The notes: generated by a model from the letters alone, not told the origin. A stretch of DNA of 64,000 bases from Octopus vulgaris (GCA_951406725.2 OX597819.1:117738001-117802000), one strand, 5' to 3'; counted from the stretch's first letter, positions 3,354 to 45,348 are shown. Program-made: numbers and translations.

Positions 3354-3551
3354 ATATAGTTAATCCAAACATGAAAACACAACAACGCGAGGACGTGGAA
3401 CAAGTATAGTATTATTGGACGCTCAGGAAAGAAGGAGGGTTTAACGTTTCGAGCGGAGCTCTTCGTCAGAAACATAGGAAAAGGAAAAATCCAAAGAAGA
3501 GAAGACGGAGTAAAAAAATCCCCAACGGTACACACGCGGTCACATTTTGAA
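3354..3551 (-). mobile_element. HHR-bearing short element family H1 (Penelope pLTR-like), copy 1
   Basis: Homologous to 4652-4860, 18480-18694 and 21568-21745; flanked by (TA)n; contains a hammerhead motif. Confidence 0.8.
3439..3473 (-). ncRNA. minimal type I hammerhead ribozyme, canonical core
   Basis: Reverse complement GUUU CUGACGA A GAGC-UCC-GCUC GAAA CGU U^AAAC: stem I GUUU/AAAC, stem II GAGC/GCUC, palindromic ACGU stem III. Confidence 0.75.
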
Positions 3552-4349
3552 TTATATATATATAAATATATATATATACATATAGATTGATAGATAGATA
3601 GCTGGGTACATGTATTTACATATATATTTTTTCCCTACAGATATAGCGATATATGTACATATATGTTTAGTATTTAATTTAAATACTATATAAAATTGAA
3701 TATATGAATAGGGAAAGACAGCAACGAAATACATTTTATAATGCAACTGAGAGCATTGACATCGAATTTCGTTTACGAACTGCTTTTCTGAGTCACTATA
3801 AAGAAAAATAAATAAGATGAACCTTGTTTTTGAAAATTAAAGATGCATTTCAAATCGCATCCTTTTCCTCCTGTTAAAAAAAAAAAAAAAAAAAAAGTCA
3901 AACTTAATTTACACGTTTTCACACTGAAATTTCAGTTCCTGTGTCGGATATAATTGAACAAAAGACGGACGTAGGCGATTTCAGGTATTGTAGAGAAAAA
4001 TAAAGCATCCCAGCTGTAGAAATAAAACTGCGATGTGATTCCATATTGGTGTCCTGGAAGCATGTATTTTGAGGAGGAAATCAACTACCAATTCTACTGA
4101 TGCCAGAAAGATTTCAAATACAAAGAATACTATGACATATCCATGTCAAGCTATGTCAAGCAACCACCGACAATAGCCATTGTGTCATGTCACAGAAAAA
4201 AATGAATAAAAAGGCCCATTGAGATAGTTCATTCAACTCAGCTCAGGCAAAAACACTGCAAATGACATATTCGCAGCTGATACCGATATGAAAAGAACAA
4301 AATTGGAAAACTCAAAAGTTGTTTACAATTCTGTAAATCATTATATTAA

Positions 4350-4605
4350 ACTAGCTGACCACGTTCCGTCAATGATGACGGCTAATTGTAATATTCTATA
4401 TATAAATAAGGTACATAATAATAACACATAAAAACATTCACATACTTCCCCTTTACACGCACACACAGGGACAAAGTCTTTTCACACTTTCATTCCCTTT
4501 CATTCTATCATACCTTCTTTCCATTCATTGCTATTACTTTTTCTCATTCCCTCTCAGCCCAGGCTTCCCTGAATTACTCTTTCTCTCCCCCTCCGCGTCA
4601 GGCGT
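4350..4605. mobile_element. possible Helitron/Helentron-type non-autonomous fragment
   Basis: Begins AACTAGCTGAC followed by hairpin CCGTCA-ATGA-TGACGG; other end not identified. Confidence 0.25.
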
Positions 4606-4651
4606 GATTCTGGACATATATATATATATATATATATATATATATGTATGT

Positions 4652-4860
4652 ATTCAAAATGTGACCGCCTGTGTACCGTTGGCGATTTTTTTTCCTCTGT
4701 CTTCCCTTCTCTGGATCTTTCCTTCTCCTATGTTTCCGACGAAGAACTCCGCTCGAAACGTTAGACCCTCCCTCTTTCCTGACCGTCCAATAATACTATA
4801 TTTGTTCCACGTCCTCGCGTTGTTGTGTTTTTTTGTGCTTTCTCATTTGGATTAACTATA
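4652..4860 (+). mobile_element. H1 element copy 2 (HHR core mutated to CCGACGA)
   Basis: Inverted homologue of 3354-3551; GTTT CCGACGA AGAACTCCGCTC GAAACGTTAGAC at 4732-4766. Confidence 0.8.
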
Positions 4861-4904
4861 TATATATATATATTTTTTATTTTATTTATTTATTCATTTA
4901 ATTA

Positions 4905-40937: not shown

Positions 40938-42462
40938 ATATATATATATATATATATATATATATATATATATATTTACATTTATATCTCCACCTGTCTA
41001 ACTATTTATATATCTGCCTATGTACGTATGTATGTATGTTTGTCTCTATCTTACTCTCTTCACAGAAAGATTAGTAAGTATATGGATACATAGAGAAACA
41101 GATAGAAAGATACATCAAAGCTTTAAACTCGTAGACATACACACACAGGCGCGCACACTCATATGGACATATGTGTATGACATATAACGCGTCCAAGACT
41201 CATATCCCCTTTGTTTATTGTTTCACCAATTCAGGCACCTCGTCAGTATATTAATAACTCATTTTAAAATGTAGGCCTTAGAGACATAGAAACACACTTT
41301 CGTTTTCTATTATTTTCTGTCAATAACTGATAATGTAGTCACATCCCATTAGAACGATTATTATACGTGTCTTTTCTTTTTTACTTTTTGAAATTATAAA
41401 TCCGTTCAATTTTTATTCGTAAATACACTCTTTCTGAAAATTATAGATAATTTATCAGTTCACATTTCATACAAAGACCAAGCAATAATCACACCAAATA
41501 CAACAATATATTTTTCTCGGGAGGTTTATTCTTAAGCATTTTAATATAAGAAACTGACTATTAAAGCCAATTTACAGTAAATTCTGACAAATTTATATTT
41601 TCATTCAAAAACTTTTTATAGCACAATTCAAAGAATATAAGCGAAAATAGAAATTTCTACAAAAATTGATGTGTATGTATATATATATATAAATATATAT
41701 ATATAAATAAATAAATAAATAAATAAATAAATATATATATATATATATATATATATATATATATATATATAACACACACACACACACACATATATATATA
41801 TATATATATATATATATATATATATGTTATAATCTATGTGAAATAAATAAAATCTATACACACATACACACACGCATACACATATATATTTAGCAAGTAA
41901 ATTTATTTTATTGTAAATAATACGTTGCTGCATTCCATAATTAAGGAGAAAAAATTGTTCAAGTAATGAAAAGAGAAATGAAATTCTCCAAATATGTCAA
42001 TGGTGGACATTTTTTTTCTCTAAATATCTAATTTACAAAAGGTAAATTAAATATTTTTTCCTAGGTAATTTGAAATTACAATAACCTACATGACTGAAAG
42101 TACTTTTAGCTTCTATAGCGTATTTATGGCTTCCCATGATATATGATTTCATTTCAAATTCTTGCCATTATGTCAATAAAAGGTTTTAAAGTCTGAGCAA
42201 AAACGTTGAAATGATTCGCACCAGTTCTTCCGACCTTTATCAAATTATTTCTCCCAATTGTTTTATTAACGAAAAATGCTTATTAATATGTAGGTCGACA
42301 TATATCTTCGTTTAAAAATGCAAGTTTAAATCAATAGTTTGAACTAGCTTGCACTCAAGCAATACAACATACATCGAAAATATCCCATTCCGCTTGTGGC
42401 ATTCTCTGTGCACGGCACCATTCTTTGTTTTTATAAAGATCGTTTTTGTGCATTGATATATG

Positions 42463-42720
42463 TACGAAGTGCTTTCAAAAAGTATTCAAATTTATTATTT
42501 TCCTGACAAATCTAATGCAACGTGATCAAAATTCTTTCAGTCGGCGGTGACGAGCGCTCGGTACGCGTCTGTATTTTGGGCGTAAGATCCGCTAATTGAT
42601 GCGGCAACCGGCGCGAATGTTTTCAAGAATGCACAAAAAAGGTGATGTCAACACTCACCCAAGTATTCTGCCCACGTGGCATGAGTACTGCCGAGAAAAT
42701 ATTTTTTGTCTGCACCTAAT
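42463..42720. mobile_element. possible mariner-type MITE fragment
   Basis: TACGAAGTGCTTTCAAAAAGT resembles mariner TACGAGG...CAAAAAGT termini; weak right end TTTTTGTCTGCACCTAAT. Confidence 0.35.
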
Positions 42721-43899
42721 GTGTAAAGTTAAAACGATGGAAAAATCAAGTAAATGACAGGAGACTGCTATTCAAGTTCAGAATAATAGGTATTTTAGAT
42801 TTTCTGGTTTTTGATGTTATGAAATAATTCTCGTTAAATAATACAACGTGATCAGTGTGTGAACTTGATAAACTGTTCCATTACCAGTTAATAATTTTCG
42901 TAGAAGTTGCAAGGTTGCAAGTTATTTACAATTACATAAATACCCTTACATTAAGAAATTTATACTATATATATATATATATATATATATATATATATAT
43001 ATATATATATATATATATATATATATATATATATATATATATATATATAATATATATATATATATATATATATATATAATTGTTTGTCTCTCTCTAATAA
43101 TTATTGTGGCTTTTACAGTTAAATTACCGGTTCCACACAAGGGCTTCTATTTCGTTCATTTGCTTATATTTCGCTGATTTACACTATATACTAAAATACA
43201 GACATATTATATACATATCACGCGGTAAGCCATTATGCCATATATTTTAAGTAATACATTATTACATTTTCTCATGTGACTGCATAGACTCACCTTTTGT
43301 TTCTTCTTCCAGAGCCACACCACCAATCCAATGTCTTCGCTTTCCGCAACATTTCAGCTGTTCACTTCACCGTTGCCGTCTACCAATTCAGTCCATTTCA
43401 GGAATGTACACATTTACGTACAATATCTCCATTACAGCTCCATTCATTTGGCAGTCAACAAAACGATGGATTGTGTTAGATGCAGCGCTGACCGCCTCAG
43501 AGTCAAGCATATCAACTGGCAGATTTTCGGTGAATTCAAATATAACATACGCGCCACTGCCAATTTTCCATGATAGGTTAGGGCATGCAATCCTGCAAAC
43601 GGACGTATTAAATGTCACTTAGCCGAATGAAACCATCATTTACTCCACAAATATTTCGTCGTTAATGCTGCAATTTCCTGTATCACTTGGTTCAACATAA
43701 CTGAAGAGAATAGTTACGCTGAGTAAGTGATATGATTGGTCAACCATGAGGTTCCAAGCTCACAGCTGAGGCTGAGACTAGGGATCCGTATTAGGCTTCT
43801 GTGTTAGTACGTATATATTGGAGGAAAAGAACAACCAAAACCGAGGCCGGAGAAGTATGTCAATTGATTTATAATAATTTACGGTAAAGTGAATTTGAA

Positions 43900-43974
43900 G
43901 TCTTATAACTGTTTCTGGGTATCTAAAGTGATAGACTAGCATGTCCGAGCACTAGGTATTCAGTCATCAGAGAT
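43900..43974 (-). ncRNA. hammerhead motif with canonical CUGAUGA core and long stem II, within a PLE-like 3' end (about 43810-44300)
   Basis: Reverse complement UCU CUGAUGA CUGAAUACCUAGUG...CACUUUAGAUACCCA GAAA CAGUUAUA^AGA; stem III looks like a decayed ACAGCUGU palindrome. Confidence 0.5.
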
Positions 43975-45348
43975 AAGGTGATTATGCATGGAAGTGCCAG
44001 ACAGAGAAATTAGTAGTTAATAAGGATTAAAATAGAAGAATAAAGAATAAAGTGTAAAAGAATATTCAAATAGAAGAATAAAGAGTAAAATACAGACAGT
44101 AGAATAAAGTTCACAGTTCATCTTTTTCGAGAGGATATGGAGGTTGGTCTGAACTTCCATGAAGGTATAGGCAGTTAGGTATAATACCAGGGAAATCCAG
44201 TCATTATTTTGTCAGTATTTTGAATGAAGCTTTCATGTTGAATCATTGGATTAAATGTAAATTGTCCAGACTTCGCAATAGGCAGAAGTGGATTATGAGT
44301 GAGTGAAGAAGAAAGAGGAGAAAAAGAGAAAAGAAGGAGAAAAAAAAGGGAGAAAAAGTGAGTGTATAACCTATGGATTTACTACTTTATTCGAGTGTAG
44401 ATAGAATGAACAGGCTGTAATACTCACATTTTGCAAAATAGATTCTATGTTCTCATATACAGACGACACTCGGTCCCTCTATACATTTGTTTGCATTTAT
44501 ATATACATAGACCCGTGTGCGTGTGTGCTTGTATATTCTCGTATACATATATATATATATATATATATATATATACGAGCACACACATATATATGTATAT
44601 GTATATATATAATGGTATGGTTCCACTTTGGAGACAGGAACATATTTAAAGAGTTATTCAGATACAAAAATTATACTTATTTCTATCGATGAAGTCGGAC
44701 AGCAAGGGAAATTCGGCGGGAGGTTCATGTTCGTAACCCTGGAAACAGTCATCAAAAAGACGGAAAAATATATTTCTTCTTTGAGTTGCAATTTTCAACA
44801 AATCGTTTCGCAACAGTATAGAGAAGCAACTTAAATTTCAAAGAAGACGTCCGTTTTGTATATAAAGTGCACATATAGAAAACACACCCTACCACACACT
44901 TATATACTGAAGTAATTAAATGTAACTGTACAGGAAGATATATGTACTTCTCTCTCCCTCTCTGTCTGCCTTTCTGTATAACTCTCCCTCTCTCAAAATA
45001 AGTGTGTGTGTGTGCGTGCGTGAGTATATATATATATATATATATATATATATATATATATATATATATATATACATATGTATATATATATATATATATA
45101 TATATATATATATATATATATATATATATATTTACATTTATATATATATATATACAACTATATATACATATATTTATTGCTGTTTATGTATCACACTACC
45201 TTTCAAGATATTTGTTTTTCTCTCTCTCTCTCTCCTTATCTATCTATCTATCTATCTATCTATCTATCTATCTATATATCTCTTTATCTTTCTATCTGTC
45301 TATATGTGTGTGTATGTGTATGTGTTTGCGTTTGTGTGCACATATATG

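Follow-up and report, generated by a model that had tools for sequence, protein, structure and literature searches.

The short hammerhead-bearing repeats in a 64,000-nt stretch of Octopus vulgaris DNA (the window; GCA_951406725.2 OX597819.1:117738001-117802000) form five families, H1 to H5, that are very probably the 5′-truncated 3′ ends of five families of Penelope-like elements (PLEs), each carrying a minimal hammerhead predicted to be dimer-dependent. Being the ends of ordinary PLEs with an already known motif, they represent a system that is largely known. The H1–H5 PLE 3′ ends amount to approximately 10^5 copies genome-wide and these short repeats should be annotated as PLE ends, from four clades, and not classed as repeats of unknown type or as novel ribozyme elements. 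The residual novelty lies in the cores fixed as G3-C8 in H3 and as A6U in H2, and also in a tRNA-like head with A and B boxes in H4, which possibly marks a Pol III SINE-like sub-population.

An earlier note on this DNA had claimed nine hammerhead motifs in the window and all nine were found where it had placed them. The motif was more frequent than in shuffled sequence, with five descriptor matches in the window against a mean of 0.27 and a maximum of 2 in 30 local dinucleotide shuffles, while an unselected sample of 600 kb (12 blocks from eight large contigs) gave 18 matches against 1, 1, 0, 5 and 3 in five shuffles. Three of the five window matches belong to the nine, one is chance-like and one represents an overlooked sixth family, H6, whose hammerhead (13240..13325, minus strand) lies in a repeat of approximately 400 nt and has an intact CUGAUGA core, a long stem II and a ACGAUCGU palindrome. 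Only three of the nine copies passed the descriptor, the remaining six having an altered core, stem II or palindrome, and most hammerhead copies in the window are decayed. Among the 150 of 205 Rfam matches listed for the window no hammerhead family appeared, only microsatellite-driven miRNA matches.

Four copies of H1, the 3′ end of a Neptune-type PLE, lie in the window. The first (3359..3552, minus strand) is truncated at its 5′ end and has (TA)n on both sides, with the core, stems and ACGU palindrome of its hammerhead (3439-3473) intact. The hammerhead of the second (4652..4856, plus strand; hammerhead 4732-4766) has the core CCGACGA and mismatches in stem I and stem II, that of the third (18483..18688, plus strand; hammerhead approximately 18550-18586) is decayed with G5 changed and the palindrome broken, and G5 is also changed in the fourth (21564..21745, minus strand; hammerhead 21657-21691). 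H2, the 3′ end of a young Neptune-type PLE, is present at 40722..40936 on the plus strand with the A6U core CUGUUGA (hammerhead 40802-40839), and a related copy at approximately 80% identity to H2 (16308..16448, minus strand) carries the A6U core CUGUAGA (hammerhead 16401-16436). The H3 insertion (20910..21235, plus strand), with the G3-C8 core GUGAACA in its hammerhead (21042-21090), consists of an inverted 3′ fragment (20910-21034, minus strand) head to head with a sense 3′ end plus tail (21035-21235), flanked by a 13-bp target duplication (20897-20909 and 21236-21248). H4, the 3′ end of a Poseidon-type PLE (30911..31284, minus strand), contains a decayed hammerhead (30965-31010) and the tRNA-like A/B-box head (31212-31284), which is followed by an (AAC/AAT)n spacer and joined to an inverted H4 3′ end plus tail (31289..31363, plus strand). 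H5 (43701..44361, minus strand) comprises the 3′ UTR, hammerhead and tail of a Hydra-clade PLE, the hammerhead (43900-43974) being decayed from a family form with the palindrome ACAGCUGU.

The fold proposed for these motifs, a minimal type I hammerhead with a palindromic stem III, was borne out in H1–H5, with helices I and II, an extra nucleotide after A9 and a palindrome replacing helix III all present. In the family majority forms, taken from 24–30 genomic copies per family, the palindrome is ACGU (H1, H2 and H4), AAUAUU (H3) or ACAGCUGU (H5), and the proposed covariation of stem I was likewise recovered, with GUUU/AAAC, UCUUU/AAAGA, UUGUCA/UGACAA, GACAC/GUGUU and GUCU/AGAC as majority pairs across families. 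That stems and palindromes vary among families but always pair points to selection on the fold. The core follows CUGANGA, GAAA and UH with positions 3 and 8 paired, the majority form in H1, H4 and H5 being canonical or U4C. The majority core of H2 departs from the canonical form by A6U (28/29 copies), while that of H3 has G3-C8 (27/30 copies), a compensatory exchange of the 3-8 pair, and a sibling family carries a U3-A8 core. The copies of H2 are 96–99% identical, marking a young family, such that the A6U variant belonged to a recently active element.

It is rather improbable that the H2 and H3 motifs are catalytically dead relics of the PLE hammerhead. The near-complete fixation of A6U in H2 would be in keeping with such loss, as would the low activity of a natural A6C variant and the poor in vitro cleavage by PLE minimal hammerheads, in the portions of the sources covered (PMC3088659; PMC4209133), but the compensatory swap in H3, the U3-A8 core of the sibling family, stems and palindromes that always pair despite differing between families and the recent activity of the element carrying A6U all argue against it. 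The G3-C8 and A6U cores would offer natural tests of dimeric catalysis. To judge by the title, Lunse, Weinberg and Breaker reportedly described in 2017 numerous small variants of the PLE hammerhead that cleave as dimers, and both cores may already be covered there.

The link to PLEs suggested in the earlier note was upheld, every family from H1 to H5 joining the GIY-YIG end of a PLE ORF on the same strand, with longer copies showing the C-terminal GIY-YIG end of the ORF, then the 3′ UTR and then the H family. H2 lies downstream of the endonuclease region in 25/25 loci, which were chosen by that region and include the query and one partial case. H1 is linked to an ORF in three of 30 loci, with ORF, UTR and H1 together in L213/L227 and the ORF end common to L198 and L211, and H3 lies downstream of its parent ORF in ten of 25 loci (two being seeds, with the flank limited to 1.5 kb). 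For H4 the linkage is present in 2/25 loci, with the ORF directly before the UTR and head in L102 and an inverted ORF plus head in L113, and H5 lies downstream of its parent in 7/25 loci, one being the query. An inverted endonuclease adjoining H5 in L127 was rejected as belonging to another family, and long upstream sharing between copies was discounted, being due in part to copies in inverted orientation or to an insert of unrelated sequence within the (AAT)n tract.

By motif rather than by tree, the CX4CxxC linker of the H1 and H2 parents is Neptune-type and the H4 parent, with no cysteine linker, is Poseidon-type, while the CX3CxxC linker and GIY-YIG of the H3 parent fit Neptune or Nematis, which are not separable by motif. 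The H5 parent has a CxCX5C linker with CxxC and CxH motifs, matching the Hydra definition. Pfam matches to the parent endonucleases were weak (E 0.003–0.23), with no Pfam match for that of H3, and a homologue search with a 77-aa piece of the H5 parent found nothing, which is weak evidence. The families had been described as independent, a view that does not hold for H1 and H2, which are approximately 70% identical over 120 nt with parent proteins 55% identical. The two PLE RT relics reported in the window do exist, but neither is a parent of the motifs beside it. The Neptune-type relic at 20767-21381 (minus strand) is interrupted by H3 and is its target site, with the 13-bp duplication flanking the insertion, while that at 45438-45708 (minus strand) is Neptune-type and lies approximately 1 kb from H5, the parent of which is of the Hydra clade.

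The insertions have a fixed 3′ end and variable 5′ truncation. An inverted 5′ copy is present in H3 (18/30), H4 (13/25) and H5 (10/25) and in none of 30 loci each for H1 and H2, and an optional 3′ tail in H3 (19/30), H4 (8/24) and H5 (10/23). The proposed embedding in (TA)n stands for H1 (26/28) and H2 (27/29) and in part for H3 (15/30) and H5 (6/23), against a background of 7–12%, and fails for H4 (0/24); the H3 copy in the window lies inside the RT relic and not in TA. In the unselected sample, eight of 13 H1 copies have their 5′ end between −93 and −111, counted from the cut site, and four of five H3 copies between −43 and −57. An initiator-like word is a candidate feature at the common 5′ end of H1, and a candidate 3′ splice site lies directly before that of H3.

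Much of this has been described for PLEs, as far as the parts of the published accounts covered extend. Minimal palindromic hammerheads with an extra nucleotide are known from PLE ends, with examples in molluscs, and the min-HHR described from the PLEs of metazoans (Cervera and de la Pena, 2014; PMC4209133) shares the short helix I, the extra nucleotide before G10.1, the palindromic positions 15-16, the location in the PLE terminal repeat, the U3-A8 variant, opposite-strand pairs 100–700 bp apart and thousands of solo copies, ascribed there to truncated PLEs. The alignment in that source, in the part covered, is without a G3-C8 or A6U core, a cephalopod or a tRNA-like head. The Neptune, Nematis, Penelope-Poseidon and Hydra C-terminal EN+ PLEs (Craig et al., 2021; PMC8557442) show the same 5′ truncation, inverted 5′ copies, 30–40 bp tail and a bias toward (TA)n that goes with the cysteine linker, in the sections covered. 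In those sections, Hydra elements share with H5 the CxCX5C linker and hammerheads with an acag..ctgt-a stem III, and the list includes an octopus family of the Hydra clade that bears a hammerhead and prefers (TA)n; its hammerhead, acca-a-tggt, is not that of H5. The families H1–H4 are not among the supplement entries covered (PMC8557442).

The earlier note had regarded all families as self-propagating, non-autonomous mini-elements, which in retrozyme-like fashion would be cleaved as dimers and pass through circular RNA, and we consider this very unlikely. The need to dimerize was agreed as a prediction, one already published for PLE hammerheads, but the palindrome duplexes of H1–H4 (only −0.2 to −1.7 kcal/mol) are too weak for pairing in trans. 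The non-LTR retrozymes of metazoans (PMC7229834; bioRxiv 10.64898/2026.07.22.740005) are, in the parts of these sources covered, also non-coding, hammerhead-bearing and related to PLE termini, the latter source reporting them as PLE-terminus derivatives, which would favor a retrozyme-like system. They are, however, head-to-tail tandem repeats with mostly canonical hammerheads, whereas copies of H1–H5 stand alone or in head-to-head pairs and run on from an ORF, and none of 140 loci has a direct copy in the 700 nt upstream. Genomic ends, whether 5′ or 3′, that coincide with the cut site were considered as evidence of in vivo cleavage and rejected, 5′ ends not being enriched within 6 nt of it (1/73 in H1, 0/69 in H2, 5/98 in H3, 2/60 in H4 and 0/37 in H5, from sets leaning toward complete ribozymes).

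The clustered 5′ ends of H1, H3 and the H4 head, together with an entire ribozyme motif in 34 of 38 unselected copies, speak for mini-elements and against truncation, and the clustering could reflect short RNAs that begin at defined positions; junctions can also be brought together by AT microhomology to the (TA)n target and by local hairpins. The lack of inverted 5′ copies in H1 and H2, the missing repeat-ORF-repeat unit in H1–H5 and the weak Pfam matches of the parent endonucleases likewise count against truncation. In favor of truncation are the same-strand continuity with an ORF and 3′ UTR in longer copies of every family, which argues against a separate unannotated system, the fixed 3′ and ragged 5′ ends and one 13-bp target duplication, with the inverted 5′ copies and optional tails matching described truncated PLE insertions. 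Mini-elements would be at most a sub-population, for which H4 is the best case. For truncated PLE ends, the PLE endonuclease would nick the target, at (TA)n in cysteine-linker families and at other sites for H4, with reverse transcription beginning at the 3′ end of the element and mostly stopping after 150–600 nt, just beyond the hammerhead. From the literature, the ribozyme would matter only in the complete tandem unit (repeat-ORF-repeat), in which two copies on one RNA would pair via their palindromes and a unit-length RNA be cut out. Solo and head-to-head copies would provide one sense ribozyme per transcript and no dimer in cis. It is likely that such copies were dead on arrival and are now decaying.

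The alternative for H4 is that it includes a SINE-like sub-population beside the truncation products, which is possible though doubtful. In this reading, a Pol III promoter internal to the 3′ UTR of the PLE would yield a 300-nt RNA consisting of the tRNA-like head, (AAT)n, hammerhead and PLE 3′ end, to be copied in trans by the Poseidon-type enzyme with each new copy retaining the promoter. The head carries A and B boxes spaced as in a tRNA and is confined to the position before the H4 body (10/10 in 664 kb). Of 16 copies with an intact head, 13 have their 5′ end no more than 9 nt from the first base of the head, giving approximately 1.3 ends per nt at the head start against approximately 0.3 per nt inside it (13 in approximately 45 nt). 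In 5/5 copies the stretch from the head into the 3′ end is free of T4 runs, and one copy has such a run in the flank. Against this, the Rfam tRNA model gave no match to the head at E ≤ 10 and relaxed ARAGORN, while calling it in some copies, also called many unrelated places. The head start lies within a short palindrome and four of the 13 ends there are fold-backs, such that cDNA snap-back may explain the pile-up of ends. The count relied on a B-box filter that missed two long copies. The core subtypes do not set the head-start copies apart as a lineage, each of the two being found among long copies as well. In the literature covered, which lacks most subscription papers and Repbase/Dfam, no report of a SINE arising from a PLE with a Pol III head was found.

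The schistosome repeats Sm-alpha and Sj-alpha are known to be transcribed by Pol III. In the part of the source covered (PMC6765202), these hammerhead SINEs place a promoter and then a hammerhead in a short repeat, as does H4, but have a canonical hammerhead in tandem repeats, whereas in H4 a coding PLE holds the head within its 3′ UTR. Tentatively, a Poseidon-type PLE may have taken up a Pol III promoter of tRNA-like form in the 3′ UTR, just upstream of the hammerhead, making its solo ends a self-renewing SINE, alongside G3-C8 and A6U cores fixed in recently active families. It is conceivable, with similar reserve, that the tens of thousands of H4 copies are a PLE-driven SINE born inside its driver. 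Should the head work as a Pol III promoter, it would illustrate a way in which a PLE can give rise to a SINE.

No repeat-ORF-repeat unit was seen for H1–H5 themselves among a few long loci, four of them from H1, H2 and H4, and L174 has a partial upstream copy. The full layout is seen in the sibling family, where 452-nt direct repeats with 99% identity surround the ORFs in L226 and each carries a U3-A8 hammerhead. With a young full-length family that has two ribozyme-bearing repeats, and with several fixed core variants, the genome is thus a good test bed for the role of the PLE hammerhead.

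The nine hammerhead positions claimed by the earlier note were all found in the window. The descriptor used required positions 3 and 8 to be paired, with at most one other core change, a stem II of at least 4 bp, a stem I of at least 3 bp and a 3′ part of GAA followed by a 4–8 nt palindrome and H. It gave five matches in the window, where 30 local dinucleotide shuffles averaged 0.27 and never exceeded 2. An unselected 600 kb of the same genome held 18 matches, with 0–5 in five shuffles, so that motif frequency lay above the shuffled background in both. Three of the five window matches are positions already named (3439, 16400 and 40802), one looks like a chance match and one belongs to a sixth family, H6. 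The H6 repeat (13113–13500, minus strand) carries a hammerhead at 13240–13325 with a perfect CUGAUGA core, a long stem II and a ACGAUCGU palindrome, and has 19 matches in the examined loci including head-to-head inverted copies. The remaining six named window copies are decayed though their families are not, with core and palindrome intact in 25/30 genomic copies of H1, 25/29 of H2, 23/30 of H3, 11/25 of H4 and 12/24 of H5. An Rfam scan of the window had no hammerhead among the matches listed (150 of 205).

In every family the 3′ end is fixed and the 5′ ends are ragged, and walking upstream arrived at a coding Penelope-like element (PLE) parent for every family from H1 to H5, bearing out the proposed link to PLEs. 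At locus L037 the end of a GIY-YIG ORF is followed by a pyrimidine-rich UTR and then H2, and H2 lies downstream in 25/25 loci chosen by the H2-parent endonuclease region. At L213 and L227 an ORF 54–55% identical to the H2 parent leads through a UTR to H1, the H1-parent ORF end being common to L198 and L211; H1 and H2 share about 70% identity across 120 nt and are therefore sister families. H3 was reached across a 1.4-kb UTR from an ORF end that combines a GIY-YIG domain with a linker of the form CX3CxxC, and lies downstream of this ORF end in 10/25 loci. For H4, a linker-less ORF end, short UTR and H4 unit are joined at L102, with the same arrangement inverted at L113. H5 follows a 1-kb UTR and lies downstream of its parent ORF end in 7/25 loci, this ORF end carrying the CxCX5C, CxxC and CxH motifs that define the Hydra clade in the part of PMC8557442 consulted, with clade names here assigned from motifs and not from a tree. 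Pfam matches to the parent endonucleases were weak. Published Hydra hammerheads, in the extracts consulted, share the stem III type of H5. The Hydra-clade ORFs in L301, L317, L348, L350 and L352 have a long Asn/Thr-rich low-complexity stretch between the RT thumb and the CxCX5C linker. A further PLE family (L233 and L235) has the hammerhead core CCGAAGA with an AGUACU-type stem III, the 5′ copy at L233 being inverted and perfect over 637 nt.

Since the families are continuous with coding PLE parents, the separate unannotated mini-element system suggested previously gives way to the known PLE minimal-hammerhead arrangement, to which H1–H5 belong and like which they work. They differ from non-LTR retrozymes, which are recognised by tandem copies, in that 0/140 loci had a second copy in the same orientation in the 700 nt before the first. 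Inverted 5′ copies occur in H3 (18/30), H4 (13/25) and H5 (10/25), with 0/30 in both H1 and H2, tails occur in 19/30, 8/24 and 10/23 copies of H3, H4 and H5 respectively, and the window H3 is flanked by a 13-bp target duplication; matching anatomy is described for PLE insertions (PMC8557442, in part). The favouring of (TA)n held for some families only: a tract of at least (TA)3 lay no more than 25 nt from the 3′ end in 26/28 H1, 27/29 H2, 15/30 H3 and 6/23 H5 copies but 0/24 H4 copies. The background, taken at random positions, was 7% for the sample and 12% for the window. This pattern fits the tie between (TA)n targeting and the cysteine linker in PLEs (PMC8557442, in part) because H4, the sole linker-less family, is without the bias. 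The two RT relics said to accompany the families (20767–21381 and 45438–45708, both minus strand) are indeed Neptune-type PLE fragments but are unrelated to them, H3 having inserted into one. In L096, L099 and L106 a common insert of about 600 nt lies inside the H4 (AAT)n spacer.

A young full-length Neptune-type PLE of a sibling family (L226, G000:C16:20834500–20844400) has two ORFs (359 and 781 aa) flanked by a pair of 452-nt direct repeats, which are 99% identical, start at a TATA-like word and each hold a hammerhead with U3-A8 and an ACAUGU palindrome; the 781-aa frame is intact in many genome matches. In the published model, as given in the part of PMC4209133 consulted and in review passages, the palindromes of two PLE ribozymes carried by the same transcript pair with each other and unit-length RNA is freed; the in vitro activity of the minimal hammerheads is reported as low. 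By extension, pairing of the two palindromes in a full-layout transcript would release unit-length RNA. The H1–H4 palindromes are computed to be worth just −0.2 to −1.7 kcal/mol, and in head-to-head copies the second ribozyme is on the opposite strand. Short copies lack a ribozyme partner and are likely to be inert, left behind where reverse transcription did not run to completion. No excess of genomic ends was seen at the predicted cut site. In one case (L174, oriented 555–660) an H2 end stops 3–4 nt beyond this site and is joined, with microhomology, to RT-coding sequence belonging to the copy that follows.

In the unselected sample 5′ ends were clustered a short way upstream of the ribozyme, at −93 to −111 from the cut site in 8/13 H1 copies and at −43 to −57 in 4/5 H3 copies, with the whole ribozyme kept in 34/38 matches. 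Such clustering can be explained by AT microhomology to the target site, by hairpins nearby or by limited processivity, or might alternatively reflect defined short RNAs, for which H4 makes the strongest case. In H4 the PLE UTR is separated from the ribozyme by a 72-nt head whose A and B boxes are spaced as in a tRNA. This head was found solely with the H4 body (10/10) and forms the 5′ end of the copy in 13/16 intact heads, raising the rather doubtful possibility that a Pol III head inside the PLE end drives a SINE-like H4 sub-population. Against this, the Rfam tRNA model gave no match to the head, a short palindrome lies at its start with four junctions being fold-backs, and nothing seen pointed to a lineage of its own. 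Upstream of H3 (L239–L268) a candidate branch point and a pyrimidine tract ending in CAG abut the commonest H3 5′ end; this resembles the intron end by the Drosophila virilis Penelope hammerhead (PMC4209133, in part).

The cores of two families are fixed variants, G3-C8 in H3 (27/30 copies) and A6U in H2 (28/29). Neither was present in the portion consulted of the PMC4209133 alignment or in section 8 of PMC3088659, and a literature search found none, the likeliest source paper lying outside its scope. Within the 2.8 Gb assembly search candidates numbered hundreds to thousands per family, and the unselected 600 kb held 9 H1, 12 H2-like, 3 H3, 13 H4 and 1 H5 matches. This density of about 60 per Mb extrapolates to the order of 10^5 genome-wide, with insertion events fewer than matches because inverted halves are counted twice.

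Other repeats in the window include a LINE fragment of 295 aa with a zf-RVT domain by Pfam match (1992–2879, plus strand), two abundant dispersed SINE-like families (148–564, 5403–5599, 6330–7198 and many further copies) unrelated to the hammerhead families, and long inverted-repeat elements, MITE-like or fold-back (19509–20190 and 49519–50869). Fragments at 23857–24760 and 34593–35799 are presumably of Tc1/mariner transposase, as which they read.
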